Part shown: piece by piece, positions 40,838-62,597 of the stretch
Layout of the letters: each line of letters starts with the position of its first letter
How positions within the stretch are numbered: position 1 is the stretch's first letter
Source: a virus
Strand: one strand, 5' to 3'
Length of the DNA stretch: 64,000 nt
IMG/VR virus record: IMGVR_UViG_3300017963_000230
Coordinates: 1 to 64,000 of that record
Notes under the pieces: generated by a model
What the model was told of the DNA's origin: nothing
Database searches by the model: none
Seen by the model: the letters and a program-made list of their open reading frames with translations, nothing else
Position numbers and translations under genes: made by a program

Positions 40838-41190
40838 TCACCTCCTTTCTGTTTAGGTTGGATATGAAACGCCTTGAGTAGTACTTCTTGATTAGCCTTG
40901 ATAGTGTGTATGGTATCAAATTTCTCCTCCATTCTCGTAGCTATCCATCCAAACATCGTAATCGTTATACCTACTAATATTATCAAGACCCATCGTGGTG
41001 CCCTAGATTTAATATCTTCTCTCATTTCCTTCAAATCCTCCTTAGTTGCCGTTCTCTCGAATAATTGTTCTATATGTGCTTCATTTTTATGAATAGCAGA
41101 ACATTTGATATCATGAAATGCACAGACGGATCTATCTGATTCCCTCCTTATGTGTTTCCTTCTATCTTCTATTCCATTCCAATCACTCAT
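40834..41190 (-). CDS. Membrane protein with a C-proximal transmembrane helix (holin/XhlA-like layout, unverified)
   Basis: Helical N-terminal region, then WVLIILVGITITMFGWIA. 4-nt overlap with the giant gene. Confidence 0.55.
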   Translation of the reverse strand: MSDWNGIEDRRKHIRRESDRSVCAFHDIKCSAIHKNEAHIEQLFERTATKEDLKEMREDIKSRAPRWVLIILVGITITMFGWIATRMEEKFDTIHTIKANQEVLLKAFHIQPKQKGGE

Positions 41191-44100
41191 ACTAACTCAC
41201 CTACTTTCATCTTAACATCAACTTCCCATTTATTGTTAAGATTAGTCTGTATGCGAAAAGTGATTAGATAAGGATCTAAGTCTGGATCCCCGCTAACCAC
41301 TCTTTGACAGTATTTGTAAACATCTACCACATAGGGACTGCCTGACAATATATCAGTAACAGCATTGCCGTCCTTATCCTTAGCAGTTACGGTAGAGTTA
41401 TTGGTGTCTATAGTTTCTCCACTCTCGAGTACATCCTCAAAGTCACCATATGGCACGAAGGACTCCCAAGGTTGCTTGAAAAAGTTCTTTACTTTTGGTG
41501 TGCTGCCCACCTCAATCACCTCCTTAAATCCTAATGTTACAACATCTCTTTTATATCCTAACGTGACCTCGTCACGGGTAAATCCAATGTGGGGCTCCTC
41601 AGAGGGAGGGTATGTAGTCGTAGTGGTACTGTAAGTACTAGAAGTAGATGTGCTGGTACTTGTGGTTGAATAGGTGCTGGTTGTACTGAAGGTGCTGGTA
41701 GAAGTACTAGAAGTTGTTCCTGTTCCAGTAGTGCTCGTTGTGCTGAGAGTACTAGTGGTACTGAAGGTGCTTGTGCTTGTGCTTGTGCTGGTACTGGTAC
41801 TGGTTGTCGAGTAGGTACTTGTGCTGGTTGTCGAGTAGGTACTTGTGCTGGTACTGGTGCTGGTGCTTGTGCTTGTACTGGTGGTACTAAAGGTGGATGT
41901 GCTGGTACTTGTGGTAGAGTATGTGCTGGTGCTTGTACTGGTGCTTGTACTAGTAGTAGAGTAGGTACTGGTACTGGTACTGGTACTGGTGCTTGTGCTT
42001 GTACTGGTGGTCGAATAGGTGCTTGTGCTTGTGCTGGTTGTTGAGTATGTGCTGGTACTTGTGCTGGTACTGGTACTTGTGGTTGAATATGTACTAGTGC
42101 TGGTACTGGTACTTGTGGTTGAGTAGGTGCTGGTACTGGTACTTGTGGTTGAGTATGTGCTAGTGCTTGTAGTAGAGTATGTGCTGGTACTTGTGGTTGA
42201 GTATGTGCTGGTACTTGTGGTTGAGTATGTGCTGGTACTTGTGGTAGAGTATGTGCTGGTGCTTGTACTGGTGGTACTAAAGGTGGATGTGCTGGTACTT
42301 GTGGTAGAGTATGTGCTGGTGCTGGTTGTGCTGAAGGTAGATGTGCTGGTGCTAGTTGTGCTGAAGGTGGATGTGCTGGTGCTAGTTGTGCTGAAGGTAG
42401 ATGTGCTGGTGCTGGTACTTGTACTGGTGGTTGAATAGGTTGAAGTACTAGTGCTGGTAGTTGAGTATGTACTGGTGCTTGTACTGGTGCTTGTACTTGT
42501 GGTTGAATATGTACTGGTAGAAGTACTGGTGCTTGTACTGGTGGTTGAATAGGTTGAAGTACTAGTGCTGGTGGTTGAGTATGTGCTGGTACTTGTACTG
42601 GTACTGGTACTTGTGGTTGAGTATGTGCTGGTACTTGTACTGGTTGTAGAGTAAGTGCTTGTACTGGTACTGGTACTGGTACTGGTGGTTGAGTAGGTAC
42701 TGGTAGAAGTACTAGAACTGGTGCTAGTTGTGCTGAAGGTAGATGTGCTGGTGCTTGTAAAGGAAGTAGTGGTTGTAGAACTAGTGGTAGTTTCTCCTGG
42801 TTCTGTAGTCGTAGTGGTACTGAAGGTACTGGTAGTGCTATAAGTTGAGGTGCTGGTAGAAGTACTGGTGCTTGTGCTGGTTGTTGAATATGTACTAGTG
42901 CTGGTACTGGTGGTTGAGTATGTGCTGGTACTTGTGCTAGTAGATGTACTGGTTGTAGAGTAGGTGCTGGTACTTGTACTTGTGGTTGAGTATGTGCTGG
43001 TACTTGTACTGGTACTGGTACTTGTGGTTGAGTATGTGCTGGTGCTGGTGCTGGTGCTGGTGCTGGTTGTCGAGTATGTACTGGTAGAAGTACTGGTAGT
43101 TGAGTATGTGCTGGTGCTTGTGCTGGTACTTGTACTTGTGGTTGAGTATGTGCTGGTGCTTGTACTTGTGGTTGAGTATGTGCTGGTAGAAGTACTGGTG
43201 CTGGTACTTGTAGTAGAGTATGTGCTGGTGCTTGTACTAGTAGATGTGCTGGTTGTTGAGTAGGTGCTGGTGCTTGTAGTAGAGTAGGTGCTGGTTGTTG
43301 AGTAGGTGCTGGTAGAAGTACTGGTGCTGGTACTTGTAGTAGAGTATGTGCTGGTGCTTGTACTAGTAGATGTGCTGGTTGTTGAGTAGGTGCTGGTAGA
43401 AGTACTGGTACTGGTGCTTGTGGTTGAATAGGTACTGGTACTTGTACTGGTACTGGTACTTGTGGTTGAATAGGTTGAAGTGCTTGTACTAGTAGATGTG
43501 CTGGTGGTTGAATATGTACTAGTGCTTGTACTTGTGGTTGAGTATGTGCTGGTGCTTGTGCTGGTACTGGTACTTGTGGTAGAGTAGGTACTGGTACTGG
43601 TACTTGTGGTTGAGTATGTGCTGGTGCTTGTGCTGGTAGTTGAGTATGTGCTGGTGCTGGTGCTTGTAAAGGAAGTAGTAGTTGTGGAACTGGTGGTAGT
43701 TTCTCCTGGTTCTGTAGTTGTAGTGGTACTGAAGGTACTAGTTGTACTGAAAGTGCTGGTGCTTGTGCTTGTGCTGGTACTGGTACTTGTAGTAGAGTAT
43801 GTGCTGGTGCTGGTACTTGTAGTAGAGTATGTGCTGGTACTTGTGCTGGTACTGGTACTTGTGGTTGAGTATGTGCTGGTGCTTGTGCTGGTTGTTGAGT
43901 ATGTGCTGGTAGAAGTGCTGGTTGTTGAGTATGTGCTGGTAGAAGTGCTGGTACTGCTACTTGTGGTTGAATATGTACTAGTACTTGTACTTGTGGTAGA
44001 GTATGTGCTGGTGCTTGTACTGGTACTGGTACTTGTGGTTGAGTATGTGCTGGTGCTGGTGCTGGTTGTTGAGTATGTACTGGTGCTGGTGCTTGTACTG

Positions 44101-46142
44101 GTACTTGTGGTTGAATAGGTGCTGGTGCTGGTGCTGGTTGTTGAGTATGTACTGGTGCTGGTGCTTGTACTGGTACTGGTTGTTGAGTATGTGCTGGTAG
44201 AAGTGCTGGTTGTTGAGTATGTACTGGTGCTGGTACTGGTACTGGTACTTGTAGTTGAGTATGTGCTGGTACTGCTACTTGTGGTAGAGTATGTGCTGGT
44301 ACTAGTGCTTGTGGTAGAGTATGTGCTGGTGCTTGTGGTTGAATAGGTACTGGTGCTTGTGCTGGTACTGGTACTTGTAGTTGAGTATGTGCTGGTAGAA
44401 GTACTGGTACTGGTGCTTGTGGTTGAATAGGTACTGGTGCTTGTGCTGGTACTGGTACTTGTAGTAGAGTATGTGCTGGTACTGGTGCTTGTGCTGGTAC
44501 TGGTTGTTGAGTATGTGCTGGTGCTTGTGCTGGTACTTGTACTTGTGGTTGAGTATGTGCTGGTGCTTGTGCTAGTGCTGGTACTTGTGGTTGAATATGT
44601 ACTAGTGCTGGTGCTGGTGGTTGAGTATGTGCTGGTGCTTGTGCTGGTTGTTGAGTATGTGCTGGTACTTGTGCTGGTACTGGTACTTGTGGTTGAATAT
44701 GTACTAGTGCTGGTACTGGTACTTGTGGTTGAATAGGTTGAAGTACTTGTGCTAGTAGATGTGCTAGTGGTTGAATAGGTTGAAGTACTTGTGCTTGTTC
44801 TGGTACTTGTACTGGTAGTTGAATAGGAACTGGTACTTGTACTGGTACTGGTACTTGTGGTTGAGTATGTGCTGGTACTGGTGCTTGTACTGGTACTTGT
44901 ACTGGTAGTTGAATAGGTACTGGTAGAAGTGCTGGTGCTTGTACTGGTGGTTGAATAGGTTGAAGTGCTTGTACTGGTACTGGTGCTGGTTGTACTTAAG
45001 GTGCTAGTGCTGGTACTTGTTTGAGTGCTAGTACTGGTGGTAGAATAGGTACTAGTAGAAGTACTGGTGGTAGAATAGGTGCTGGTAGTTGAATAGGTGC
45101 TGGTACTTGTACTGGTGGTAGAATAGGTGCTGGTTGTTGAGTAGGTGCTGGTACTTGTACTGGTCGTAGTAAAAGTAGTGGTAGTGGTAGTGGTAGTAGC
45201 AGCCTCCCCTTCACACTCTAATAGGAACTCCAAAGTTTCTGAGGCTGTAAGTTCATCATCAGTGGTTATTAATATTTCACCACCAGGCAACCATACTAGT
45301 TGATAATTATTAGTACCTCCATACTGTTGTATATTACAAGTAGAAGGAGGTTCGGTAGTTGTAGTACTAGTTGTACTAAAGGTAGTGGTTGTACTGAAAG
45401 TGCTGGTGCTTGTGCTGGTAGTTGAGTAGGTGCTTGTACTGGTGCTTGTGGTAGAATAGGTGCTGGTACTTGTACTTGTTTGAGTGCTGGTACTTGTACT
45501 TGTTTGAGTGCTTGTACTGGTACTTGTGGTTGAATAGGTGCTGGTACTTGTAGTACTAAAGGTGGTAGTGGTAGTACTCGTGGTAGTGGTAGGCGAGGAA
45601 ATCGTGATCGTGGGCGTCTCGTCAAATGTCGATAAATTCGGGTCTTTAACCCTAACCTGTATCAAACCACCATTGACAACGTTCACAGAATTAATCTGGA
45701 GGCAGACCTCCATCTCACAGAACTCATTTCCCCCGAAGTCGATGGTGTCAGCAATCGTGTCGTTGGTTGCGCCGTCACTCAGCTCACCGAAATCTCCGCT
45801 GGACGATGCACCTCCGTCATAAACCCGCTTGTTATTGTCAAGGTCGCCGTCAGTATAGTAGGTGGTAGTCGAGAAGGCTATTTCGACTGATGTGGTTGTT
45901 ACTTGAGTCCAAGAGCCATAGCTTGACCCCGTGCCGGTGGAATCGTAGCGGTATTCCAGTTCGAACATCGGGTTAGCTTCCGCCTTGTTGTTCGACTCCA
46001 CAACGGCAAAACGGATGCGGAAGTTCTCATCAGTATTCTGCGTCCAATCATTATTAAGCGAGGCTTTCGTGGTTGCGCTACCAGGAACGGCATCGTCTTT
46101 GTAGCCCTGAAAGTCCTCCTGTGTATAAATTGGATTTGTCAT
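41187..46142 (-). CDS. Giant mucin-like Ser/Thr-repeat protein (1651 aa) with globular N- and C-terminal domains
   Basis: Uninterrupted ORF, ATGA-coupled on both sides. About 180-aa N-terminal domain, more than 1300 aa of STSTSTYSTT-type repeats, about 140-aa C-terminal domain. Confidence 0.85.
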   Translation of the reverse strand: MTNPIYTQEDFQGYKDDAVPGSATTKASLNNDWTQNTDENFRIRFAVVESNNKAEANPMFELEYRYDSTGTGSSYGSWTQVTTTSVEIAFSTTTYYTDGDLDNNKRVYDGGASSSGDFGELSDGATNDTIADTIDFGGNEFCEMEVCLQINSVNVVNGGLIQVRVKDPNLSTFDETPTITISSPTTTTSTTTTTFSTTSTSTYSTTSTSTSTQTSTSTSTQTSTSTSTYSTTSTSTSTYSTTSTSTSTFSTTTTFSTTSTTTTEPPSTCNIQQYGGTNNYQLVWLPGGEILITTDDELTASETLEFLLECEGEAATTTTTTTTFTTTSTSTSTYSTTSTYSTTSTSTSTYSTTSTYSTTSTSTSTYSTTSTSTQTSTSTSTLSTTSTSTSTSTSTYSTTSTSTSTSTSTYSTTSTSTSTSTSTSTYSTTSTSTSTSTSSYSTTSTSTRTSTSTSTYSTTSTSTSTSTSTYSTTSTSTSTSTYSTTSTSTSTSTSTYSTTSTSTSTYSTTSTSTSTYSTTSTSTSTSTSTYSTTSTSTSTSTSTYSTTSTSTSTSTSTYSTTSTSTSTSTSTYSTTSTSTSTSTSTYSTTSTSTSTSTSTYSTTSTSTYSTTSTSTSTYSTTSSSTSTYSTTSTSTSTSTSTYSTTSTSTSTYSTTSTSTSTSTSTYSTTSTSTSTYSTTSTSTSTSTSTYSTTSTSTSTYSTTSTSTSTSTSTYSTTSTSTSTYSTTSSSTSTSTSTYSTTSTSTSTYSTTSTSTSTYSTTSTSTSTSTSTYSTTSTSTSTYSTTSTSTSTSTSTSTFSTTSTFSTTTTTEPGETTTSSTTTTSFTSTSTSTYSTTSTSTSTYSTTSTSTSTYSTTSTSTSTSTSTYSTTSTSTSTYSTTSTSTSTSTSTYSTTSTSTSTSTSTYSTTSTSTSTSTSTYSTTSTSTSTSTSTYSTTSTSTSTSTSTYSTTSTYSTTSTSTYSTTSTSTSTSTSTYSTTSTSTSTSTSTYSTTSTSTSTYSTTSTSTSTSTSTYSTTSTSTSTYSTTSTSTSTSTSTYSTTSTSTSTSTSTYSTTSTSTSTYSTTSTSTSTSTSTYSTTSTSTSTYSTTSTSTSTSTSTSTYSTTSTFSTTTTTEPGETTTSSTTTTSFTSTSTSTFSTTSTSSSTSTSTYSTTSTSTSTSTSTYSTTSTSTSTYSTTSTSTSTSTSTYSTTSTSTSTYSTTSTSTSTSTSTYSTTSTSTSTSTSTYSTTSTSTSTYSTTSTSTSTSTSTFSTTSTSTSTFSTTSTSTSTFSTTSTSTYSTTSTSTSTFSTTSTSTSTYSTTSTSTYSTTSTSTYSTTSTSTYSTTSTSTYSTTSTSTSTYSTTSTSTSTSTYSTTSTSTSTSTSTYSTTSTSTSTYSTTSTSTSTSTSTSTSTYSTTSTSTSTSTSTYSTTSTSTSTFSTTSTSTSTSTSTSTSTYSTTSTSTYSTTSTSTSTSTSTSTFSTTSTLSTTSTTGTGTTSSTSTSTFSTTSTYSTTSTSTSTSSTYSTTTTTYPPSEEPHIGFTRDEVTLGYKRDVVTLGFKEVIEVGSTPKVKNFFKQPWESFVPYGDFEDVLESGETIDTNNSTVTAKDKDGNAVTDILSGSPYVVDVYKYCQRVVSGDPDLDPYLITFRIQTNLNNKWEVDVKMKVGELV
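41612..45595. repeat. Ser/Thr-coding low-complexity repeat tract with a ~909-bp super-repeat
   Basis: (a/g)gt(a/g)ct-type periodicity. The identical 24-mer ggtagtttctcctggttctgtagt occurs at 42786 and 43695. A non-repeat island lies at ~45199-45352. Confidence 0.9.
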
Positions 46143-46456
46143 TTAATGTACGGGTCTTTCCTTGCCGTATCGAATATTTTTTGCCATTGTTTAGAGGGTA
46201 TGGTGCGCCCCGCCTTCACGATTATTTCTCCCTTATAATGTGCCATGTAGTCAATTAAACCTATCATGTCCACACCCACCCAGAAGCCGTCTTGGAAAAT
46301 ATACCAGTCGCTACCGTTCTGGTGATATTTTCTCTCGGTGTGCAAATCATACTGAATAATGTCTTGCACGTCCCAGAACGGTGCCTCCCTAGGGGAGCCC
46401 TGTTCGTCGTTAAAGCTACTGTCGGTGTAATATATTTTCCATTTTCCTTTGCTCAT
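46139..46456 (-). CDS. Hypothetical protein
   Basis: 105 aa, ATGA-coupled to both neighbours. Confidence 0.7.
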   Translation of the reverse strand: MSKGKWKIYYTDSSFNDEQGSPREAPFWDVQDIIQYDLHTERKYHQNGSDWYIFQDGFWVGVDMIGLIDYMAHYKGEIIVKAGRTIPSKQWQKIFDTARKDPYIK

Positions 46457-49400
46457 TGTAAGTCCACCAGCGGCACATGCAGCGGCTTGCCAAATGCCGT
46501 CCAGATTTGTGGTGTAAATCTGTCCTTGGTTATATAAAAAGCCCCGATCAGACAGTCAGCAGAATTTGCTCCACTTTCATCTGCACCCAGATACATTGTT
46601 CCTGTCGTCTTTGACCAACTTCCACCTGAATCTTCATGATCTAATAAGATTCCATTTACATAGAAATCTATATAATCTGAATCATCCCAAGCAAGTTCAA
46701 CCCAGTACCATACTCCTGCTGTTGGCGTTAATGTGCTTGCCAAATATCTTGTTACTCCATCAGATTGCCAGATAGCATAGAAATAACTGCTCGCACTTAT
46801 ATACAAATCTATATAATCTGTTGCATCTCCAAACCCTAAAAAGTACTTGGATGCTGTGACAGTCTGAAAATTAACCCACATACCTATTCGCCCATAGCTG
46901 CCATCAAAATTATTTGCATCTATTGAAAATGAAGCTGAGTGGCTCCCCTCTGCCGTAGTGTCAAAACTTTTTGTTCCAATAATCTTATCGGCGGTTGTCA
47001 GCACACCTGACCCATTCAGGGTGACTGTATAATTCGTGCCGAGGTTTGCACCACCCTTGGCTGCCCCCGCCCCTGATGCCTGACAATCCCAGAAAAAAGT
47101 CAAATCAGCATGTGGGTTGTTAATGTCTGCCAACAGCCCTTCGCCGTTGCCGATGAAGTAGGCACCGAAGGGCAGCAGACACTCACTAAAGGTTTTGACA
47201 TCGTCAATGATTATATCAGCAGGATAAGTACGATTTATTCTTGAACCAATCTCGAAATTTACAGGATCGCCTGATCCAGCTGTTCCAGTATTAATTTTAC
47301 TTGCTGCACATACCCCATCATAAAAAATAAACCACTCATGCCTTAAAAGATCCCATGAAAATAAAATCACATGACATCTTTTAAGACTATAATTATCATA
47401 AGTTTGTGGTGCTGAACCTTGCCAAATAGCTGATCCTCCAACGGAACCACCTGTATTCCAATTATCAGGCGTTGGATTATAAATGCATGTAAAATAATCA
47501 TCGCTACTTATGTAGAGTTCAAAAAGACCTTGTCCATCAACTGTATCATAATCAAATTGGGGTAAAAGTTTTATCATAAGTGACCCACGACAAAAAAACG
47601 CATTATCATGTACAGTCCCGCTTCCAAATGTCATTTCAATATGTCCAGCACCGTCCTGAGTATCCAAATTCCTACCCCTGCCAAACACCTGAACAGAATC
47701 TCCACTTGTGTTGGTATTCCTGTCACTTCCATCTGAAATGTTGCTCCAAGTGCCATCTGCATTGTTTGCAGTTTGATCTGTAAGAGTGGGGCTTGCGGCG
47801 TTCTCATCACATTTTAAATGGCACAGCAAAATATCTGTCGGGCTTGCCACGGTTCCATACTGAAAAGGCCAATCATGAATTGCAAATGCAGGGCGTATGC
47901 GGGTTGTATCTAAAGTCAATTTAACTGCATCGTTTGTATCCACCTCATAATGGTGTGCTCCATCTGAATGCAGGGTGCCGCTTGAAATCCTTGCCGGTAA
48001 AATCATGTCGGTGACATCATCACCTTTGCTTGGGCTTTGATCCAAGATGGCGTCTTTATATTGATCACCCATTGCAAGGCGGTCAGTGGAGTCATAGATT
48101 TTTGTGGAGCCTTCGCGGTCTTCTGTATCAAATATCCAAACATTTACAATCTCATGTGTACCTGGCTCAATAGTGCAGTTATCCCACCCTATTCGATATT
48201 GCCTTGTACTACTATGATATTGGCTTAAACTGCCTCCTGTTGATGATTCCGATAAGTTAATTAAAATATGATCCAGCTCATCAGCATCAATTCCAACATA
48301 GTCAGCACTCCCATGCTCTCCTGTACCTGTTGATTCAGAGCCACCATTTTCATAAATTGCTGTATCGTTCGTTAAAACTCCACTTCCTATATAATTCATA
48401 GGGAAGCCATTTTGACCATTGCTATCAATACTAATATTTCCACCAGAAGTTATCCATTTACTGTGCTGCACAATACGGTCTGAATAAATATAAAGATAAA
48501 TTTCAATGGAATCTGAATTGGTCAATACAGTAGGAGTTGAATTATAAAAGTTTCCTCTAAATCTCAAAACTACCCTGTTTGCATTTGATTCAATTATTTC
48601 TATAATTGAATTTGGGTCGTATCCTAAATTGTAGACACCTGAAGAAACAACGACTTGAGCGGGATAATAATAATTCCATGTAGTCGCACTATTGTTGTCA
48701 CAATTTAAACCACCAGTTTCTGTCGGATCAAATAATATACTAAATCCATCACAATAAACTGTTACTGTGCTGCCGGATTCTTCGATTGACAAATACGGAT
48801 CAACCACAAGCCCCACGCCTTGCTCATAGCGTTCAAGTGGAGTCCTTGCGTCTGCAACGTCTATTTGTTTTCCATCCGGCTCAAATGTCCACCAATGCTG
48901 AGTCCATCCTGGTTCTGGGTCTCCCTGTGATCCATGATTGACATTGCCCTCATAGTCTGAAACAGAAAACCACAAGCCTTTATGAACAACAGGAAACAAT
49001 GGATCAGATTCATCAACCCATCGCAAAGCTGAATCCTTAACCCTACATTGCCAACGGATTCGGGCATTGAAACCTGGCGTGTCCAGATAAAACGATAGCT
49101 TGGTGTTTTTAAAAGCCCAGTGAACATCCATGCCGAAAACCGCATCAGTTATACCAAGTGCCGGAATGTCTTTGACTACATAACACCTGAAAAATGGAGT
49201 CACTGGAACCGTACCTTCGTCTGTTTCAATCTCAGTTATCTTCTGCACGTTGGAATCAGCAAAAGAAAACAACTGCCCTTGCCAGTTGTTGGGTGATATT
49301 TCTACCTGCCCTTCAAGCTGGGCTTCAGCTACAAGGTTACCTTTCCAATAAATCTGAATCGTGTTCGACAGGACCACGATGTCGGCAGTCCCATCGAACA

Positions 49401-49591: not shown

Positions 49592-50020
49592 TTACCTCAA
49601 GTTCTTCGGCTTGCCCGGTGGAACGTGATGCACGATACCGAAAGGGTTTGGCGTATATTCCCCATTAGTATCCGACCAGTTAACCTCACTCTCTTCTAAT
49701 AAAGTTCCTTCTGAATCAAACCTAACAGCACTAACACCTACTAAATAGCGACCTTCGGTATTCAAAGTAATAACATATTGTAAATCAACAATAGGTGTAG
49801 TAGTGAGCAAAGAAGGATTCTCTTTGTTAGGATCGGTCTTAAAATTAGCCAGGTAGACATTGTACTTAATTACATCTCCAGCAGGTATTACTGTACCATC
49901 CTCCAAGGTAGTTACAGCATCCCAGGCAACAGTTGCCTGGTTGGTTTTTTGCCAATCTAATGCGTAAGCACTAAAAATAATTACCAATGACAGAATTACT
50001 ACATAAATAGATTTTTTCAT
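49592..50020 (-). CDS. Secreted FN3-like domain protein
   Basis: MKKSIYVVILSLVIIFSAYA signal peptide. ATVAWDAV...IKYNVYL...YLVGVSAV beta-sandwich pattern. Confidence 0.5.
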   Translation of the reverse strand: MKKSIYVVILSLVIIFSAYALDWQKTNQATVAWDAVTTLEDGTVIPAGDVIKYNVYLANFKTDPNKENPSLLTTTPIVDLQYVITLNTEGRYLVGVSAVRFDSEGTLLEESEVNWSDTNGEYTPNPFGIVHHVPPGKPKNLR

Positions 50021-51167: not shown

Positions 51168-51194
51168 GTAATTACACGTTAAAATTGACGCTGA

Positions 51195-53758: not shown

Positions 53759-53766
53759 GATACCTC

Positions 53767-56828: not shown

Positions 56829-57538
56829 CTATCCTTTCCCCTAATTTCTGTTGTAGCCCTCTCTTCTCCTATGTGCATAAAACAGTTTCCTCTCACCTGA
56901 CCAGCAAGTAAACCTAATTTATGATATTTCTCCATCGCATCGTGCTCTTCAGTTACAGGTAGCATACGCTTTAAAACGGAGGTTCTAATGATAGTAGGAT
57001 TAAAGGTAAAATGAGCATTACCAATAACAATACGACAGTACTTATTGAACTTGGTATCCCATTTCTTCCATTTGATAGTCTTTTTAGAGATTCTATTTAC
57101 AATACTCACCTTGCTCCACGTAGCCGACCTAAGCCGTGCATACCCAACATCCTCCCTTTCTTCAAACAGTTGAAAGATACCTTTGTTATTTTTATATCCA
57201 GAGAAGTCATCCTCATAAAGGTAGTGAGTAATAGGCTCCGTACTTAACCAATCATCTTGTAAGTGCATTACAAGATCCGTACCTTCTTCTAAAAGCTCTT
57301 GATTTAAAAGGGAATAACCCCAAGCACAACCATGATTACTTTTAAGGGAAATAATCCTATCTATTCTCTCTTTAAACCTATCTAGAACTCTCATCGTAGC
57401 GTCATCCATGCCCTGCACAAGCACCACTACTGGTCTAAATTCTTCTAAGCAATCATAATTAACATTAAAGAAGGAAGTGAGTGTTCTGCCTAAGTAGTCA
57501 GGACGTTGGTACGTTATAATTCCCAAGGGCACTCTCAT
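56816..57538 (-). CDS. GT-A-like protein, paralogue of 53030-53758
   Basis: See 53030-53758. Shares the N-terminal beta-strand/Arg motif and the xQxxDDW motif. Confidence 0.4.
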   Translation of the reverse strand: MRVPLGIITYQRPDYLGRTLTSFFNVNYDCLEEFRPVVVLVQGMDDATMRVLDRFKERIDRIISLKSNHGCAWGYSLLNQELLEEGTDLVMHLQDDWLSTEPITHYLYEDDFSGYKNNKGIFQLFEEREDVGYARLRSATWSKVSIVNRISKKTIKWKKWDTKFNKYCRIVIGNAHFTFNPTIIRTSVLKRMLPVTEEHDAMEKYHKLGLLAGQVRGNCFMHIGEERATTEIRGKDRWVR

Positions 57539-57539
57539 A

Positions 57540-58124
57540 CTATTCCTTTATGAAAAAGCGAGTGGTACAGCTTTTAAGTTTAAGATGAGTATTAGCTGGA
57601 TGTCCTCTGAACATATCAAGCACCTCTTTAACGCAAGGATTCTCAGGATGAACTTCATATCCCCAATCATGAACACCCATCACATCTCCTTTATTTAACA
57701 GCTTACCATAATAACAGATTTCTCTGTCCTTGTTACCATTATCACAATAAAGGAGTTTCTTTTCAGGTCTTTCAAGTAAGGCTGACAGCATGATATTCTT
57801 CCTGTCTATAACATCTGACCTTATAAAGGATACCCTCTTACCAAAACCATGGTTTATAAGGAACTCCAAATCCTCCTTAGTGACTTTACCTTTAGCACGT
57901 ACTAAACTCGTCCTAGCATCCATATTGTCAAAGGTAAAAAGAGTAGCCTTAGGATCAGCCTCATGCAATAACAAGGTAAGTCCATAATAAAAAGTACCCA
58001 ACTCCACTATTACCTTAAACTTACTATCCCTTACCACCTTCTGTATTATAGGGAAGCTGTCGAGTTCATGACTGATAAGAGCCTTTAGTCCTTTAACTCT
58101 TTTACTCTCGTACCAATTTCTCAT
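57540..58124 (-). CDS. Putative SAM-dependent O-methyltransferase (TylF / Methyltransf_24-like)
   Basis: VIVELGTFYYGLTLLL and LLYCDNGNK. Confidence 0.4.
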   Translation of the reverse strand: MRNWYESKRVKGLKALISHELDSFPIIQKVVRDSKFKVIVELGTFYYGLTLLLHEADPKATLFTFDNMDARTSLVRAKGKVTKEDLEFLINHGFGKRVSFIRSDVIDRKNIMLSALLERPEKKLLYCDNGNKDREICYYGKLLNKGDVMGVHDWGYEVHPENPCVKEVLDMFRGHPANTHLKLKSCTTRFFIKE

Positions 58125-59383
58125 CTATATTTTAACTCCTGCATTGTGGGTGCGTAGTACTTACGGTAAAGATTATCATAATTATAGGTTCTGCGGCAGT
58201 GTGTCTTGATTTTCAATGCCTCATTCTCTTTAAATCTGCCTATGATGATAAAAGCTACATCACGAAAGAATTTATCTGGATCTTCAATCTTTAAATCATG
58301 ACTAAAGCTACCAAAGTCAAAATAGAGGCAATTGGCCTTAGTAATCTCTATTTGCTGATGCAAAGACTTATTTAGCACCATATAGGTTCCAGACAAAGCC
58401 GCCTCTGGTACTACAAGACCAAAAGACTCTTCCCTAGTGGGGAAGATAAACAGGTTGCTACAGAGAAACAGCTCACGGATCATATACTGGGGAATGCCTA
58501 CATCAAACTTGGGGCTCTCGAAGTCGCTGGTAAAGGCGAAGTCTACTTGATCAATCAATCCTTTCATTATCGCATGTTGTCTATATTTATCAGTATCTTC
58601 TTTCTGTTGTTTACCAGTAGCCCACTGATTAGCTACGAGAAGGAACACTTCTCTTCCATGAGCTTTAAGCTCAGCAAAGATACTCATTACATAACGCAAC
58701 CTTTTGGCTGCCAGTCGATCTACTGAAGCAGGTAGTAATTGAACGAATTCTGCACTCAGTATGCCTGGATATTTATCAATCAGCCTCTTGGTGTCGTCAC
58801 TAAATTCAAACCATGTACGGATATCTTTAATGTGAGGTATACAACGAACATCATGAATCTGCCCCTTATAGTGCTCTGCTACCCTAATACGGTCAGTTTC
58901 GTTTGGATAGATGAGTTTATGATTTGGACCGTATTCCCCTATATTCCACCAATCTCGTGGACCACCTGAAGGGATACTGTGTATCCAGTGCATCCACACT
59001 ACCTTTGGTAGATTGGAAGTAGCTTCCTTTATAGCTTCACCATAAGGCATATTCCAACCAATGAAAACAAAGTCATGAGTATAAACTACATCAAATTCCT
59101 CTTCACCGAGTATCTTGACGAACCTTTTGGCTGTCTCAATTTTGATAATCTTATGCTCGTCTGACAGGTCCCTCACAGAATGATAATCTTTGAGGTGAGT
59201 AAAAGGTATTTCCTTCCTTAATTGTACGTTACCTGGAAAGTCCTCTCCATGATACCTTTCATTTACAAAAAGGTGAACTTCATGGTCATAACGAGCGAGC
59301 ATCTCTACCTGATCCTTAACAATACCCGTAAGACTGTAACCTGGTTGAAACTCTTGAAATGTTGTCATGATTGCAATTTTCAT
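58121..59383 (-). CDS. GT4-like GT-B glycosyltransferase
   Basis: MKIAIMTTF...EVHLFV N-terminus and LFIFPTREESFGLVVPEAALSG (EX7E). Confidence 0.7.
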   Translation of the reverse strand: MKIAIMTTFQEFQPGYSLTGIVKDQVEMLARYDHEVHLFVNERYHGEDFPGNVQLRKEIPFTHLKDYHSVRDLSDEHKIIKIETAKRFVKILGEEEFDVVYTHDFVFIGWNMPYGEAIKEATSNLPKVVWMHWIHSIPSGGPRDWWNIGEYGPNHKLIYPNETDRIRVAEHYKGQIHDVRCIPHIKDIRTWFEFSDDTKRLIDKYPGILSAEFVQLLPASVDRLAAKRLRYVMSIFAELKAHGREVFLLVANQWATGKQQKEDTDKYRQHAIMKGLIDQVDFAFTSDFESPKFDVGIPQYMIRELFLCSNLFIFPTREESFGLVVPEAALSGTYMVLNKSLHQQIEITKANCLYFDFGSFSHDLKIEDPDKFFRDVAFIIIGRFKENEALKIKTHCRRTYNYDNLYRKYYAPTMQELKYR

Positions 59384-59444: not shown

Positions 59445-62400
59445 TTAACTCTGTGTAAACTCAAAATTGTCGAACCAACAATTATATCCTGATTTTAAAT
59501 AGTTATGATAATGTAAATTAACCTTAAAAGAGCTTCCAATTGCTGAAAGAATCGTACTAGATACCGACTGCTGTGATCCATACTGGGTATCGTCTACATA
59601 TAACTCAATCCATTCTTCATCAAAATTAAGGACAATTTCCACATTATGTCCATTTGTTTCATCGTATGTAAATGATTCATTAATAAGAGTGTTTCCACTA
59701 CCACCACTAACTTCTGTAACAGTTATTAATCCACTAGTATCTGACCTCATTGCCAATCTTATTTTATCTCCAGCAGAACCCATATCAAGTTCACATCTGT
59801 TATAATCCCAAGAACCAGTATAGTAAGTTGGACTCGCCTCGACTATTTCAAAACCTTGTATATAATTAATTAGACCATCATCGTATGGATTGTTTGTAGG
59901 TTTAAACCAAAATTTGAAAGACCATTGTCCCGAAGCATCCAAAGCATCTTTCAAAAGTGCATTACATCCATAATTTCCACCTGCTGTATTAAGATCTAAT
60001 TCTAATTGTCCACTTGTATATTGAGCATGATTATTACTATTAGAGTTATCGATCCATTTATCAGTAAAAGTACCGGAACAATCATCTTCAAAGTCAGGAA
60101 CAGGAGGGGGCTCGGTTGTAGTGGTAGTGCTGAAGGTGCTGGTTGTAGATGCTGTACTAGAACTGGTACTTGTGGTAGATGAGGTGCTGGTTGTAGATGC
60201 TGTAGACGATGTGGTACTTAAGGTGCTGGTTGTAGATGCTGTACTAGAACTGGTACTTGTGGTAGAGTAAGTGCTTGTGGTAGAGTAAGTGCTAGTACTG
60301 GTGCTTGTGCTCGTGCTTGTGCTGGTTGTTGAATAGGTACTAGTGCTTGTACTAGTTGTTGAATAGGTACTAGTGGTCGAGTATGTGCTGGTGCTTGTGC
60401 TAGTGGTTGAGTATGTGCTGGTGCTTGTGCTGGTGCTTGAATATGTGCTGGTACTTGTGCTAGTAGATGTACTGGTACTGGTGGTTGAATATGTACTGGT
60501 GCTGGTACTGGTGCTGGTACTTGTGCTTGTGGTTGAATAGGTGCTGGTACTTGTACTGGTACTTGTAGTAGAGTATGTACTGGTGCTGGTACTAGTTGTG
60601 CTGAAGGTGCTGGTGCTTGTGCTGGTTGTAGAGTATGTACTGGTGCTGGTGCTGGTGCTGGTTGTGCTGAAGGTGCTGGTACTTGTGCTTGTGGTTGAAT
60701 AGGTGCTGGTGCTGGTACTGGTAGTTGAGTATGTACTAGTTGTGCTAAAGGTCGAGGTGCTGGTACTGGTTGTGCTATATGTACTGGTAGATGTAGTTGT
60801 ATAGGTAGTTGTAGTGGTTGTAAGAGTACCACAAGTTAATAATTCTACCTCATGCAAATAAACATTAGTACTATCAAAAGCATCAGTAAATCTAAAACGC
60901 CAATACTTATGATGTAATGTATTATCTAATATATCATAAGTATTCCATCCTCCCTTAGGATTCTCTCCAGAATAATGAGTAGTTTCCTCCCCTGCAAAAT
61001 TACCTGTAGCCGAAGATAAGATTGACAATCCTGTAGGCCTATAAGAAGCGTTGTTAAAAAGTAATCTAACCCTATGCACAATCCAAGCTGATGTCATTTC
61101 AATCTGTATCCAATTTGGAAACAGATCTACTGTAGCCTGCCAATAAGTACTATCATTATCGTCAAAAGCATTATCTGGGTCACTACCAGCCTGCGTTGAA
61201 AAAGCCGAAGCAGTTCCTCCTGATGTATGATCACTACTCCAATTATCACAAGGTACAGTTTGAGTGGTGGTAGTAGCTGAAGATGTAGTAGTGGAGTATG
61301 TGCTGGTGCTGGTGCTGGTGCTGGTGCTAGAAGTAGAAGAAGATGTGGTTGTTATAAAAGTACTTGTGGTCGAGTAGGTTGATGTGCTGGTACTGGTGGT
61401 AGAGTATGTACTAGTCGTAGTGAATGTACTGGTGCTGGTACTGGTGGTAGAATAAGTGCTGGTTGTACTATAGGTAGAAGTGCTGGTGCTTGATGTAGAT
61501 GTACTGGTTGTGCTGAAGGTGCTGGTACTTGTACTGGTAAAGGAAGTAGTGCTCGAATGAGTACTAGAAGTGGTGCTCCCAGTAGTTCCTGTAGTGCTAG
61601 TAGTATAGGTGGTCTCTGTACTACTCGTGCTCATTGTAGTGCTGGTACTACTACTGGTTGTTGAAGTGGTACTAGAGAAAGTAGTAGATCCAGTAGTAGT
61701 GGTGAAACTACTTGTGGTGGATAATGTGCTGGTTGTGCTATAAGTAGATGTAGTGGTAGAGGTTGTTGTTTGACTTGCGGTGGTTCTTGTATCCCAAAGC
61801 AGTATATCAGTTACATTGAATGGTGTGTCGTCTCCAGCACTTAAGGTAAAGGTAAAGTAATCTATATCTCCTCTATTCACCCAATTAGGGTAAATCACAG
61901 TACCTGAAGCATAATTACCTTGCCAGCATTGACCATTAGTGGTCATTATTTCAAGATTTGGACTGCCTCCATGATCATGGATGATTTTAATCTTTTCAGG
62001 TCTGAAGTTAATCATCCAAGTACCAATAGCTCTTAGACGACCACCATTTGAATCTGCATTTACATTGAAATCCCAATCACCATTAACAGAATCCCATTCA
62101 ACTTCGATGTCAGTTTCAGGATCTATATGATCAGGTTCCCAACGAGTATAATTAAAATACTGTAGCCACTGACTACGCCAATCTACATAGAAGGTAGGCT
62201 TCTCCGAACCACTATTATAGTCATAACTGCTAAACATACGATGGGATCCGGTGTCAGAACTATTGTCGTCTATCACCAATATAATAGCATTGCCGCTCGC
62301 CCAACCACTCCTGTCTATCACTGTTTGAAGTATAGAAGCTAGGTTAGGAGTGCTATAGCCTGTACCGTCGCCCCAAGCAAGTAGATCGCTTTGGTTTATA

Positions 62401-62597
62401 CCAGAAGTTAAACTGAAGGCATCTAACTCTGTCTTATTAGCTGGTGCACTAGGATTATCAGCATTTACAAAATAATAGGTAACATTGGCATTTGAAGCAT
62501 TGGTAGCTCCATATGCTATAAATCGAGCGAAAGCCAAATTGATACTGCTTCCCTGAGGAATATTCACACCTGTAAATCTAATAAATGCTTTCGCCAT
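59445..62597 (-). CDS. Second mucin-like protein: N-domain, S/T tract, discoidin (F5/8 type C)-like domain, S/T tract, LamG-like C-domain
   Basis: Start moved to the TAATG-coupled ATG 62597 (track start 62615). NAFDDNDSTYWQAT...NWIQIEM...VHRVRL discoidin pattern. C-terminal QLELDL...WSFKFWFKP jelly-roll pattern. Confidence 0.75.
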   Translation of the reverse strand: MAKAFIRFTGVNIPQGSSINLAFARFIAYGATNASNANVTYYFVNADNPSAPANKTELDAFSLTSGINQSDLLAWGDGTGYSTPNLASILQTVIDRSGWASGNAIILVIDDNSSDTGSHRMFSSYDYNSGSEKPTFYVDWRSQWLQYFNYTRWEPDHIDPETDIEVEWDSVNGDWDFNVNADSNGGRLRAIGTWMINFRPEKIKIIHDHGGSPNLEIMTTNGQCWQGNYASGTVIYPNWVNRGDIDYFTFTLSAGDDTPFNVTDILLWDTRTTASQTTTSTTTSTYSTTSTLSTTSSFTTTTGSTTFSSTTSTTSSSTSTTMSTSSTETTYTTSTTGTTGSTTSSTHSSTTSFTSTSTSTFSTTSTSTSSTSTSTYSTTSTYSTTSTSTSTFTTTSTYSTTSTSTSTYSTTSTFITTTSSSTSSTSTSTSTSTYSTTTSSATTTTQTVPCDNWSSDHTSGGTASAFSTQAGSDPDNAFDDNDSTYWQATVDLFPNWIQIEMTSAWIVHRVRLLFNNASYRPTGLSILSSATGNFAGEETTHYSGENPKGGWNTYDILDNTLHHKYWRFRFTDAFDSTNVYLHEVELLTCGTLTTTTTTYTTTSTSTYSTTSTSTSTFSTTSTYSTTSTSTSTYSTTSTSTSTFSTTSTSTSTSTYSTTSTSTSTFSTTSTSTSTYSTTSTSTSTSTYSTTSTSTSTSTSTSTYSTTSTSTSTSTSTSTYSSTSTSTSTYSTTSTSTSTYSTTSTYSTTSTSTSTYSTTSTSTSTSTSTSTYSTTSTYSTTSTSSSTASTTSTLSTTSSTASTTSTSSTTSTSSSTASTTSTFSTTTTTEPPPVPDFEDDCSGTFTDKWIDNSNSNNHAQYTSGQLELDLNTAGGNYGCNALLKDALDASGQWSFKFWFKPTNNPYDDGLINYIQGFEIVEASPTYYTGSWDYNRCELDMGSAGDKIRLAMRSDTSGLITVTEVSGGSGNTLINESFTYDETNGHNVEIVLNFDEEWIELYVDDTQYGSQQSVSSTILSAIGSSFKVNLHYHNYLKSGYNCWFDNFEFTQS
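60111..60822. repeat. Ser/Thr-coding repeat tract B
   Basis: TSTSTYSTTSTSTSTFSTT-type repeats, the same dialect as in 41612-45595. Confidence 0.85.
61262..61785. repeat. Ser/Thr-coding tract A (less regular)
   Basis: TTSTTTSTYSTTSTLSTTSSFTTTTGSTTFSS.... Confidence 0.8.

Follow-up and report, generated by a model that had tools for sequence, protein, structure and literature searches.

The 64,000-nucleotide stretch analysed here (the window; positions 1 to 64,000 of IMGVR_UViG_3300017963_000230) derives from an uncultured phage of ~88 kb. The plus-strand half of the window is a phage replication module, whereas a tail module is encoded on the minus strand. Within the tail module, two genes for very large serine/threonine (S/T)-repeat proteins, designated ST1 and ST2, lie to either side of eleven overlapping or adjacent enzyme genes (50151-59383, the island). 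The features, in order of transcription, are as follows.

59445..62615 (-), ST2, a tail-fibre-like S/T-repeat protein
58121..59383 (-), P, a GT4-family GT-B glycosyltransferase
57540..58124 (-), O, a probable small class I methyltransferase (weak assignment)
56816..57538 (-), N, a GT-A-like glycosyltransferase
56115..56828 (-), M, a carbohydrate-type sulfotransferase
54979..56118 (-), L, a GT-B glycosyltransferase
54393..54992 (-), K, a class I SAM-dependent methyltransferase
53767..54396 (-), J, a carbohydrate-type sulfotransferase
53030..53758 (-), I, a glycosyltransferase with a predicted GT-A fold
52122..53048 (-), H, a CgeB-type (Glyco_trans_1_2) glycosyltransferase-like protein
51245..52120 (-), G, a class I SAM methyltransferase with a Ser/Thr/Lys-rich C-terminal tail
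50151..51167 (-), F, a soluble GT-A enzyme related to polypeptide GalNAc-transferases
49592..50020 (-), E, a 142-aa non-enzyme protein of unknown role with an N-terminal signal or membrane anchor and a small domain
46453..49542 (-), D, a 1029-aa protein with a C-terminal ConA-like/LamG domain, probably a further fibre or receptor-binding protein
46139..46456 (-), C, a 105-aa protein of unknown function
41187..46142 (-), ST1, the giant S/T-repeat protein
40834..41190 (-), A, a 118-aa single-pass membrane protein, the last gene of the minus-strand late operon

The observation underlying the original prediction, two giant S/T-repeat genes bracketing eleven glycan-tailoring genes on one strand, is confirmed, with correct coordinates and strand. 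However, three non-enzyme genes (C, D and E) that had been omitted lie between the island and ST1, so ST1 does not directly flank it. Translational coupling within the island was also confirmed: six of the ten junctions overlap by 4-19 nt, three have gaps of 8 nt or less and one has a 77-nt gap. The ends of C overlap D and ST1 by 4 nt each. A membrane segment was identified in A (KD19 2.12 at residues 67-85), and a signal or membrane anchor in E (KD19 2.10 at residues 4-22). A has no family hit and, as far as can be told, is not part of the pathway. Homologues of E occur in related loci L032, L059 and L053 (L numbers designate homologous phage loci compared here). D matches Laminin_G_3 (1.6e-9), but has no PHROG hit and no IMG/VR relative.

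The serine/threonine-repeat proteins

ST1 is 1651 aa long and is 32% Ser and 42% Thr (74% S/T). In total, 1,303 residues lie in tracts of at least 70% S/T, and the heptad TSTYSTT occurs 85 times. The protein comprises an N-terminal globular domain (aa 1-173, 45624-46142), an S/T tract (aa 174-270, 45333-45623), a small Cys-containing domain (aa 271-310, 45213-45332), a 1,206-aa repeat that is 90% S/T (aa 311-1516, 41595-45212) and a C-terminal fibre-tail-adaptor-like domain (aa 1517-1651, 41190-41594). The C-terminal ~100 aa is homologous to free-standing 103-125-aa proteins encoded directly upstream of the GT4 gene in L006, L032, L045, L046, L055 and L058, and four of seven members of this family match the Gp77 fibre-tail adaptor family PF23148 (best 1.8e-8). 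The N-terminal domain has no match. Thus, the description of lectin-like globular domains originally proposed for both proteins holds for ST2 but does not hold for ST1.

ST2 is 1056 aa long from a GTG start at 62615, or 1050 aa from the ATG at 62597, six codons in, which had been taken as the end originally and is also used by other gene callers. It is 45% S/T, in two tracts of 183 and 247 aa. An N-terminal conserved tail-protein domain (aa 1-273, 61797-62615) is followed by an S/T tract (aa 274-456, 61248-61796), an F5/8 type C discoidin domain (aa 457-591, 60843-61247; 2.4e-9), a second S/T tract (aa 592-838, 60102-60842) and a ConA-like/LamG domain (aa 839-1056, 59448-60101; Laminin_G_3, 3e-4). 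The N-terminal domain is homologous to part of a 1654-aa protein that follows the tape-measure gene and a 246-aa gene in L003, and to the N-termini of proteins encoded directly upstream of GT4 in L008, L013, L068, L066, L010 and L009. In the sister contig L001 the gene order is tape measure, 244 aa, 871 aa, 625 aa, ST2, placing the island downstream of the tape-measure gene; the same position in the tail module is found in L003.

That the repeat ORFs might be assembly artefacts had been raised beforehand as grounds for rejecting the prediction, and we compared assemblies. An independent ENA assembly encodes an ST1 of 781 aa with identical flanks, and the 2,610-nt difference is exactly a deletion between the two copies of the longest exact repeat (98 nt), so that the shorter form equals a collapse or recombination between them. 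Two other assemblies break inside the repeat, and ST2 is 996-1002 aa in the ENA assembly. The repeat number of ST1 is therefore not secure. However, the same genes, with identical flanks, appear in at least three independent assemblies, the DNA repeats are degenerate (63-75% unit identity; longest exact repeat 98 nt in ST1 and 47 nt in ST2), and the ST1 frame stays open through 4,956 nt and joins domains that have homologues elsewhere. Comparable tracts also occur in dozens of related contigs. We conclude that the ORFs themselves are not artefacts, the artefact reading being very improbable, and that only the copy number is in doubt.

Enzymes of the island

All eleven enzyme assignments of the original prediction hold up, although that of O is weak. 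F (338 aa) matches Pfam GT2 (5.4e-10), and its family profile hits animal polypeptide GalNAc-transferases first: GalNAc-T10 (2d7i, 1.7e-8), then T7, T9, T12, T4, T1 and T2, across profile positions 4-265. The match spans the whole catalytic domain, including the DxH motif (DSH at residues 123-125) and the Gal/GalNAc-T-like GGEN motif (GGENF at 226-230); H252 and R257 are also among the invariant columns. Teichoic-acid and heparosan enzymes align only to the N-terminal nucleotide-binding part, so ppGalNAc-Ts are the best and only full-length matches. F lacks the lectin domain and membrane anchor of true ppGalNAc-Ts, but is a candidate initiating enzyme.

The protein encoded by I has no Pfam or PDB sequence hit, but carries an LEDDW (DxD-like) motif, and its AlphaFold model (pLDDT 93.4) has a GT-A fold, with Foldseek hits to SpsA (5e-10), K4CP, GnT-I, TarP and POMGnT1. 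I and N are remote paralogues (family-to-family hhalign probability 98.8%, E 7e-17), and a QDDW motif is visible in the alignment of N. P matches Glyco_transf_4 (1.2e-6) and Glycos_transf_1, and carries the EX7E motif (E319...E327 invariant). The top Foldseek hits of its AF2 model (pLDDT 90.6) are glycogen synthase, BshA, MshA, PimA and WaaG. L matches Glycos_transf_1 (3e-3), and its 43%-identical homologue in L003 carries PF00534. No Pfam hit was found for H itself, but three family members match PF13524 at 6e-5.

G matches Methyltransf_11 (2.1e-16) and a PHROG methyltransferase (4.5e-8). K matches Methyltransf_23 (1.5e-5), and its family profile hits methyltransferases in the PDB at 2.5e-6. 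O has no Pfam hit, and only single family members match FtsJ (2e-3), RMNT_CmcI (0.01) and Methyltransf_24 (0.04). J matches Sulfotransfer_2 (1.6e-6) and phrog_3347, annotated as galactose-3-O-sulfotransferase (6e-7). J and M are paralogues (BLASTP 4e-19, 32% identity), and Sulfotransfer_2 is matched by six of six members of the M family. The PSB loop HIPRTGGTTF and 3'-PB motif VRNPIDMVAS were read from the M sequence. The J/M profile hits heparan-sulfate 6-O-sulfotransferase (5t03) at 5e-12 and heparan-sulfate 2-O-sulfotransferase at 5e-6.

One rival possibility is that the island remodels host envelope glycans (LPS, capsule, teichoic acid or EPS) during infection, for superinfection exclusion or to prevent progeny from sticking to lysed cells. 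P and I resemble, among many others, WaaG, PimA, TarP and SpsA, F has a very weak match to a PHROG named GtrB-like O-antigen conversion (E 0.008), and carbohydrate sulfotransferases and methyltransferases also tailor bacterial surface polysaccharides. Placement of the enzymes in LPS, capsule or teichoic-acid conversion families had been specified in advance as a result that would overturn the prediction, and our profile searches did not place them there; the LPS and teichoic-acid enzymes are generic fold neighbours. None of the eleven enzymes has a membrane segment, and no flippase (Wzx), polymerase (Wzy), ABC exporter or lipid-carrier (Und-P) glycosyltransferase was found in the operon. In addition, the island sits inside the tail operon of a phage with no integrase in the 64 kb examined. 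We consider this explanation unlikely.

Even less likely is that some or all of the glycosyltransferases hypermodify phage DNA. Phage GT-B enzymes are classic DNA glucosyltransferases, diverse viral glycosyltransferases that hypermodify DNA are reported (cited in PMC12619734), and a cyanophage DNA alpha-GT is among the distant fold neighbours of P. However, the window already encodes a separate DNA-modification set in the replication module (FolE, a QueE-like radical SAM protein and DpdA), the island lies among tail genes, and polypeptide-GalNAc-T-like and heparan-sulfate-type sulfotransferase homologies do not fit a DNA substrate.

Conservation across the phage clade

P is the most conserved gene of the cassette, with more than 700 homologues (53-86% identity) on 85-99 kb phage contigs. 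Among 69 loci that we retrieved, a core cassette of P, L, K, I and F recurs in about 40 (L in 40, K in 37, I in 41 and F in 43). The remaining genes are accessory: homologues of G were found in 13 loci, of O in 10 and of N in 6, and H is also an accessory gene. The sulfotransferases are a rare accessory rather than part of the core, and J has only 13 close homologues among 5.8e9 proteins.

S/T tracts occur in 63 of 444 structural ORFs upstream of GT4 but in 1 of 522 downstream ORFs (Fisher 1.6e-21), in 37 of 51 loci with more than 5 kb upstream, and in 0 of 55 ORFs of the replication half of the window. The same pattern appears in four of the five MAG-binned contigs that have several kb of sequence upstream of GT4. 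The loci were chosen for having GT4, so members of the clade without the cassette were not sampled; "upstream" is confounded with "structural module", and the statistics are not phylogenetically corrected. Cassette size correlates weakly with S/T tract length (Spearman 0.41, p 0.019, n 33). The tracts differ in sequence but share composition, with (ST)nY repeats here, T-rich PTS-like repeats in a 1223-aa protein of L045, and poly-T C-terminal tails of 30-60 aa on small structural proteins in L016, L018, L027, L050 and L067. This suggests selection on composition, as expected for acceptor sites.

Alternatively, the tracts may simply be flexible spacers between fibre domains, unmodified or modified by the host, with the cassette acting on another target (the capsid or another virion protein outside the window, or a small molecule) and the proximity reflecting only common late expression. 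In 14 of the 51 loci with more than 5 kb upstream, the cassette is present without an S/T tract within about 10 kb upstream, and loci with only one to three detectable cassette genes sometimes have tracts (e.g., L039 and L061). S/T-rich linkers between carbohydrate-binding modules are common in secreted bacterial enzymes. Against this, tracts are enriched 86-fold next to the cassette and converge on S/T composition despite unrelated sequences, F is most similar to enzymes whose acceptor is Ser/Thr of a polypeptide, and a naked 1,200-residue S/T tract would be an unusual, protease-exposed structure. We regard this explanation as unlikely, though the least so of the alternatives considered.

A predicted virion glycosylation system

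We infer, as the best explanation and with moderate confidence, that this is a late-expressed virion protein O-glycosylation system carried by the phage. Our computational analysis establishes the tightly packed operon of six glycosyltransferases, three methyltransferases (one weakly assigned) and two sulfotransferases, all soluble, inside the tail module; its position immediately after a fibre protein whose carbohydrate-binding-type domains are separated by S/T tracts, and three genes before a protein whose 1,300-residue S/T repeat links an N-terminal head domain to a C-terminal fibre-tail adaptor domain; and the conservation of a five-gene core across a large clade of ~90-kb uncultured phages in which structural proteins just upstream of the core repeatedly carry S/T tracts. 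The biochemical roles, and modification of the fibres itself, are inferred; there is no biochemical or proteomic evidence that any S/T tract is modified or that ST1 and ST2 are in virions.

In this view, F and/or P (GT4 being the class used for serine-rich-repeat adhesins) would transfer the first sugar from a host nucleotide sugar to Ser/Thr hydroxyls of the tracts in the cytoplasm of the infected cell. I, N, L and H would extend or branch the glycans, G, K and O would O-methylate the sugars, and J and M would sulfate them using host PAPS. P resembles generic GT4 enzymes such as glycogen synthase, BshA and WaaG rather than specifically the serine-rich-repeat protein (SRRP) enzyme GtfA. The modified proteins would then assemble onto the tail, ST2 through its N-terminal conserved domain and ST1 through its C-terminal adaptor domain. 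Dense glycans would turn the tracts into stiff, protease-resistant, anionic bottle-brush stalks, roughly 0.3 um long for ST1 at the ~0.25 nm per residue of mucin domains, that would hold the discoidin, LamG and head domains far from the tail to reach or adhere to host surface polysaccharide or matrix.

The original interpretation, a self-contained pathway that O-glycosylates, methylates and sulfates the adjacent mucin-like fibres, is thus supported in every part that could be tested in silico, with qualifications. "Self-contained" is too strong, as no nucleotide-sugar or PAPS synthesis genes were found among the window ORFs scanned, and donors probably come from the host. Sequence alone cannot establish a mucin-type linkage (GalNAc-alpha-O-Ser/Thr), and the tracts are very poor in proline (1.2% in ST1), unlike classical mucin PTS domains. 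The phage probably builds mucin-like, possibly sulfated, glycoprotein fibres, which has not been described for any phage.

Comparison with known systems

Virion glycosylation by phages has precedent. In mycobacteriophages, glycans on the C-termini of capsid and tail-tube subunits are described, and phage-encoded glycosyltransferases are thought to glycosylate Ser/Thr-rich segments of virion structural proteins in the host cytoplasm (Freeman et al., 2023, Cell Host Microbe; as summarised in PMC12619734). The short C-terminal S/T tails on small structural proteins of relatives of this phage are much like these. However, there is no detectable sequence relationship: tblastn of P against 50,697 GenBank phage records found nothing, and F found only one Acidobacteria phage. 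Here the acceptors would be fibre proteins with tracts of hundreds to about 1,300 residues, and the cassette is larger (five core genes, eleven here) and includes methyltransferases and, in a few lineages, sulfotransferases.

In the SRRP adhesins of Gram-positive bacteria (PMC6973325, PMC5207161), very long Ser-rich dipeptide-type repeats likewise form a stalk between or under binding domains, and are O-glycosylated in the cytoplasm by a GT4 enzyme and then by a series of GT-A and GT-B enzymes encoded next to the substrate gene. The phage system has no SecA2/SecY2 export system, no LPXTG anchor and no GtfB-like partner, and the product would be assembled onto a virion rather than exported.

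The best solved relatives of the F and J/M profiles are enzymes of animal mucin-type O-glycosylation (ppGalNAc-T, CAZy GT27) and glycosaminoglycan sulfation (heparan-sulfate 6-O- and 2-O-sulfotransferases), with the DxH and Gal/GalNAc-T-like motifs and the PAPS-binding loops conserved, and the substrate-like tracts are of mucin scale. The similarity is remote (E 1e-8 to 1e-12 at profile level), F is soluble and lacks the ricin-type lectin domain, the sugar identity and linkage are unknown, and the tracts are almost proline-free.

Giant viruses (chlorovirus PBCV-1 A064R/A061L; mimivirus fibrils; PMC9614988) also use virus-encoded soluble glycosyltransferases and SAM methyltransferases to build and methylate glycans on virion proteins, including chlorovirus capsid glycans, independently of the secretory glycosylation of the host. 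The terms sulfotransferase and sulfated do not occur in that review. These are viruses of eukaryotes, and the PBCV-1 glycans are N-linked to the capsid protein.

Genomic context of the island

The window is part of a phage genome. The plus-strand half is a replication module that encodes SF2 and DnaB-type helicases, a primase, a family A polymerase with an N-terminal UDG domain, a sliding-clamp-like factor, a clamp loader and a gp32-type SSB, as well as a 7-deazaguanine gene set. From 64,000 down to 40,834 the genes run on the minus strand. The features considered here are as follows.

1-40,200 (+), replication module
9325-10191 (+), DUF932-family protein (5.7e-20), among the early and replication genes
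17570-24202 (+), 7-deazaguanine DNA-modification gene set, comprising the following four genes
17570-18226 (+), QueE-like radical SAM
18872-19459 (+), GTP cyclohydrolase I (3e-42)
20372-21715 (+), second radical SAM, 447 aa
23015-24202 (+), DpdA-like transglycosylase (phrog_887, 8e-37)
26306-28951 (+), family A DNA polymerase with an N-terminal uracil-DNA-glycosylase-superfamily domain
40834-41190 (-), protein A, single-pass membrane protein
41187-46142 (-), ST1, Ser/Thr-repeat protein
49592-50020 (-), protein E, with an N-terminal signal or anchor
50151-59383 (-), eleven enzyme genes (F to P)
59445-62615 (-), ST2, Ser/Thr-repeat protein (ATG at 62597)

An independent assembly of the same phage (ENA ERZ27256798, 84.9 kb) shows what lies upstream of ST2. 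The gene order is a 1453-aa tape-measure protein, then proteins of 244, 871 and 625 aa, and then the ST2 gene. The region is therefore the distal part of the tail module, and the island lies in the tail operon downstream of the tape-measure gene. Within the island, six junctions overlap by 4-19 nt and three have gaps of 8 nt or less.

No GenBank phage is close. A megablast search of the whole region against GenBank phages found nothing, the polymerase is at most 26% identical to anything, and the GT4 gene (P) has no tblastn hit. In the polymerase, the uracil-DNA-glycosylase-superfamily domain is fused to the exonuclease and polymerase domains, and this fusion is conserved in distant members of the clade (locus L005, 17457-20057; locus L006, 18719-21269). 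The 7-deazaguanine genes suggest that the phage DNA carries a modified guanine. This separate gene set, together with the enzyme homologies described below, argues against DNA glycosylation as the role of the island, a reading that we consider very unlikely.

The Ser/Thr-repeat proteins

ST1 is 1651 aa long and 74% Ser+Thr. It has 1,303 residues in S/T tracts, which are built from (ST)n-Y/F-STT units, and the heptad TSTYSTT occurs 85 times. ST2 is 45% S/T, with tracts of 183 and 247 aa. The original prediction, that two giant Ser/Thr-repeat proteins bracket an eleven-gene enzyme island, describes what is present, although it needs three corrections. First, three non-enzyme genes lie between the island and ST1. 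These are E, a small protein bearing a signal or anchor, D (1029 aa, with a LamG domain) and C (105 aa). Second, the lectin-like domains attributed to both proteins are confirmed only for ST2, with F5/8 type C at 2.4e-9 and Laminin_G_3 at 3e-4. Third, the repeat number is not fixed.

The ENA contig (k141_441596) encodes a 781-aa ST1 whose first 1,508 nt and last 936 nt are identical to the window. The missing 2,610 nt is exactly the interval between the two copies of the longest exact repeat (98 nt, at 42025 and 44635; the repeats span 42025-44732), so the shorter allele is precisely the product of a deletion between them. This could be natural repeat-length polymorphism between populations, arising by recombination, or collapse of the repeat by an assembler. 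Two other assemblies end inside the repeat, and ST2 also differs by 162 nt between assemblies. That the repeat ORFs might be assembly artefacts had been specified in advance as an outcome that would count against the prediction. We find that the ORFs themselves are real, as the DNA units are only 63-75% identical, the frame is the only one open, and it joins domains that have homologues elsewhere. The artefact explanation is thus highly unlikely, and only the repeat number is in doubt.

Proteins E and A are the only two proteins in the late operon with hydrophobic segments. The N-terminal signal or anchor of E is odd for a tail-module protein; homologues of E occur in loci L032, L059 and L053 of related phages. 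Protein A is encoded at the very end of the operon and could be holin-like. A scan of IMG/VR with protein D found no relatives, and PHROGs gave no names for the tail proteins, for D, C, E or A, or for the terminal domains of ST1 and ST2.

Enzymes of the island

The eleven genes had been assigned to a ppGalNAc-T-like GT-A, two GT-B glycosyltransferases, a CgeB-like protein, two paralogous GT-A-like proteins, three methyltransferases and two sulfotransferases. All eleven assignments survive testing, with differing strength.

F matches Pfam GT2 (5e-10). A profile of 30 family members hits animal polypeptide GalNAc-transferases first (T10 at 1.7e-8, then T7, T9, T12, T4, T1 and T2), across profile positions 4-265, with the alignments to ppGalNAc-Ts reaching profile position 217-265. 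The D123-S-H125 motif is invariant in the 30 family members and aligns to the metal-binding DSH (DxH) of GalNAc-T10. Also invariant are G226-G-E-N-F230, H252 and R257, which sit on the Gal/GalNAc-T motif (WGGEN...) and the downstream His/Arg in the second half of the catalytic domain. TarP, TarS and heparosan synthase align only to the first ~120 positions. F is 338 aa long, with no further domain and no hydrophobic segment, and so lacks the C-terminal ricin-type lectin domain and type II membrane anchor of polypeptide N-acetylgalactosaminyltransferases (CAZy GT27). Transfer of GalNAc from UDP-GalNAc to Ser/Thr was not assayed, and we regard F as a ppGalNAc-T-like catalytic domain rather than a GT27 member in the strict sense.

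I has no sequence-level match, but is confidently predicted (pLDDT 93) to fold as a GT-A, with structural similarity to SpsA, K4CP, GnT-I, TarP and POMGnT1. N is a remote paralogue of I (hhalign 98.8%). BLASTP of I against N was insignificant, and only the profiles showed the paralogy. A comparison of I with F by hhalign showed no relationship, so I and N are not paralogues of F. P is a GT4 GT-B with the EX7E motif; its top 50 Foldseek hits are generic GT4 enzymes, and a Foldseek search against BFVD gave only generic viral GT1/GT4 proteins. Searches of PDB sequences with the GT4 profile and with the I profile found nothing, so that fold prediction was needed instead, and a phmmer search of PDB sequences with concatenated H, I, M, N and O also found nothing. 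L is a GT-B, and its homologue in locus L003 carries PF00534. Members of the H family hit the CgeB-type PF13524.

G and K are class I SAM methyltransferases, whereas O is only weakly methyltransferase-like. G ends in a Ser/Thr/Lys-rich tail of ~35 aa (KPSTKSSTTSKSVSSTDVESTPARPRRK..., within 51245-51360) that is absent from the catalytic fold and might itself be an acceptor or a docking segment.

J and M are 32% identical. Sulfotransfer_2 is matched by 6 of 6 family members (2e-9), and the J/M profile matches heparan-sulfate 6-O-sulfotransferase (5t03, 5e-12) and 2-O-sulfotransferase (5e-6). Both PAPS-binding motifs, the 5'-phosphosulfate-binding loop and the 3'-phosphate-binding motif, are conserved (HIPKCGGT[ST]F and [LV]R[DN]P[VI]D). 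PAPS-dependent sulfation of a sugar hydroxyl was not measured here. We considered sulfation of the regularly spaced Tyr of the ST1 repeat and set it aside, because Phe often replaces Tyr (12 TSTFSTT against 85 TSTYSTT) and because the J/M profile matches carbohydrate sulfotransferases.

None of the eleven enzymes has a hydrophobic segment, and the operon has no flippase, polymerase, exporter or lipid-carrier glycosyltransferase. Placement of the enzymes in families for conversion of host LPS, capsule or teichoic acid was to have counted against the original prediction. The membrane-embedded components of Gtr-type modules (GtrA flippase, GtrB Und-P glycosyltransferase, GtrC) were not found, and the only hint in this direction is a PHROG match at E 0.008. 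Such modules usually occur in temperate phages; no integrase was seen in the window, although only 64 of about 88 kb was examined. Given the absence of any membrane component and the position of the island in the tail operon, remodelling of host envelope glycans seems an unlikely explanation.

Distribution of the cassette and of S/T tracts

Synteny of the repeat and glycosyltransferase genes in other phages had been proposed as a check, and comparative genomics changes the picture. The GT4 gene has more than 700 homologues at 53-86% identity, many of them on 85-99 kb contigs that also carry the PolA-UDG fusion. Thus, this is a large uncultured phage clade, not a single case. We examined 69 loci, 62 from IMG/VR and 7 identified by protein-identity searches. 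P, L, K, I and F usually appear in that order. The sulfotransferase family has only 13 close homologues among 5.8 billion proteins.

Occurrence of cassette genes in the 69 loci (gene: loci with a homologue)
P: 68
F: 43
I: 41
L: 40
K: 37
G: 13
O: 10
H: 7
N: 6
J/M sulfotransferases: 6

Structural ORFs immediately upstream of GT4 very often contain S/T tracts. These occur in 63 of 444 upstream ORFs against 1 of 522 downstream ORFs (Fisher 1.6e-21), in 37 of 51 loci with more than 5 kb upstream, and in 0 of 55 ORFs in the replication half of the window. The tracts take several forms, including internal linkers of 100-230 aa in tail proteins (one of which matches a PHROG tail assembly protein at 2e-27) and C-terminal tails of 30-60 aa on proteins of 170-290 aa. 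Other clade members have their own giant S/T proteins. Locus L045 (4503-8174) encodes a 1223-aa protein with about 700 aa of T-rich, Pro-containing repeats, L012 (20010-21254) has an ORF of more than 414 aa that is mostly S/T and runs off the contig, and L032 (5399-9590) has two adjacent S/T proteins that share the 'STFSTTTTTEPGET' separator motif with ST1. The sequences differ but the composition converges. The number of detectable cassette genes correlates weakly with S/T tract length (rho 0.41, p 0.019, n 33), without phylogenetic correction. That the tracts are unmodified spacers and the cassette has a different target is possible, but we consider it unlikely.

Eight MAG contigs (L074-L081) carry the GT4 gene. 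Four are binned as Desulfobacterota (Deltaproteobacteria, Thermodesulfobacteriota and two Desulfobacteraceae) and the others as Brocadiaceae, Bacteroidales, Thorarchaeota and Eubacteriales. Literature searches with the sample accessions gave no hits, so the environment and host are unknown, and the binning is only a weak hint at the host, of interest given the sulfotransferases. The only isolated phage with a detectable relative of F is Tunturiibacter phage Tunturi_4 (PP885687.1), an 88-kb Acidobacteria phage. The gene (gp2, 1567-2565; 23% identity, 3e-9) lies between the large terminase and the portal, and no S/T tract occurs in the first 14 kb of the structural module.

Predicted virion association of ST1 and ST2

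The N-terminal domain of ST2 recurs in the 1654-aa protein that follows the tape-measure gene in L003, and at the N-termini of proteins just upstream of GT4 in six other loci. The last ~100 aa of ST1 belongs to a family that in other clade members is a free-standing protein of 103-125 aa directly upstream of GT4. Four of seven members hit Pfam PF23148, 'podophage GP4 fibre-tail adaptor gp77' (best 1.8e-8), whereas a profile of the family searched against the PDB returned only spurious DARPin hits with no qualifying aligned stretch. In this phage a small adaptor protein therefore seems to have acquired a 1,500-residue N-terminal extension, consisting of a head domain plus the S/T stalk. Membership of ST1 and ST2 in the virion is inferred from this tail and fibre-adaptor homology.

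Inferred pathway

The gene content, the enzyme classes, the recurrence of the cassette and its association with S/T tracts come from the sequence analysis, whereas the steps of the pathway are inferred from them, and we hold the following model as the most likely one with moderate confidence. During late gene expression the soluble enzymes would modify the S/T tracts of ST2, ST1 and perhaps other structural proteins in the cytoplasm. F and/or P would add the first sugar to Ser/Thr, and I, N, L and H would extend the glycans. G, K and O would methylate them and J and M would sulfate them, using host nucleotide sugars, SAM and PAPS. Glycans were not demonstrated on the virion proteins here. The glycoproteins would then assemble on the tail, where the tracts would become extended, protease-resistant, negatively charged stalks that present the discoidin, LamG and head domains. 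The original interpretation, a pathway that glycosylates, methylates and sulfates the adjacent mucin-like fibres, is supported by every test available here and gains weight from the clade-wide synteny, but it remains a prediction.

A more far-reaching possibility, which we put forward only tentatively, is that a widespread clade of uncultured ~90-kb phages, with contigs often binned with sulfate-reducing Desulfobacterota, makes true glycoprotein fibres in the bacterial cytoplasm, using a conserved five-enzyme core that includes a relative of animal polypeptide GalNAc-transferases. In this lineage the system would have been pushed to a mucin or proteoglycan scale, with a stalk of about 1,300 residues (~0.3 um) carrying methylated and sulfated O-glycans. 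This would be the first virus-encoded glycan sulfation and the first proteoglycan-like structure on a phage.

If confirmed, phage virion glycosylation, so far shown experimentally for actinobacteriophages, would be a general and sometimes extreme strategy that includes a conserved and portable enzyme set in an abundant environmental phage clade. It would provide soluble bacterial-cytoplasm enzymes that install O-glycans on simple S/T repeats, namely a ppGalNAc-T-like enzyme and heparan-sulfate-type sulfotransferases, which would be useful for glyco-engineering in E. coli. It would also prompt a rethink of how phages adhere to biofilm matrix, capsule or mucus, and many 'auxiliary metabolic' or 'cell-wall biosynthesis' glycosyltransferase labels in viromes may need reinterpreting. 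As substrate and enzymes are encoded side by side, the prediction is open to direct testing by co-expression.

Comparison with known systems

Our literature searches found no phage system combining S/T repeats with sulfotransferases. Virus-encoded glycosyltransferase plus methyltransferase tailoring of virion glycans is established for chloroviruses (PMC9614988), in a review that mentions neither sulfotransferases nor sulfated glycans. The nearest solved enzymes are animal ppGalNAc-Ts and heparan-sulfate sulfotransferases.

Architecturally, the system resembles the serine-rich-repeat adhesins of Gram-positive bacteria, which are glycosylated in the cytoplasm (PMC6973325). ST1 has (ST)n-Y-STT repeats, and the GT4 gene P lies directly downstream of ST2, followed by further glycosyltransferase genes. 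However, P shows no specific similarity to GtfA, no GtfB partner was found, and no Sec (SecA2/SecY2) or sortase-signal components occur in the operon.

Functionally, the closest system is mycobacteriophage virion O-glycosylation (PMC12619734). Shared with it are phage-encoded glycosyltransferase genes located with structural genes, and Ser/Thr-rich segments in inferred virion proteins, including C-terminal tails in the clade. The glycosyltransferases are not detectably related, as P has no match among GenBank phages by tblastn and F matches only Tunturi_4 gp2. The resemblance is therefore functional, not common descent at a detectable level. The scale and the tailoring enzymes also differ from those of the mycobacteriophage system.
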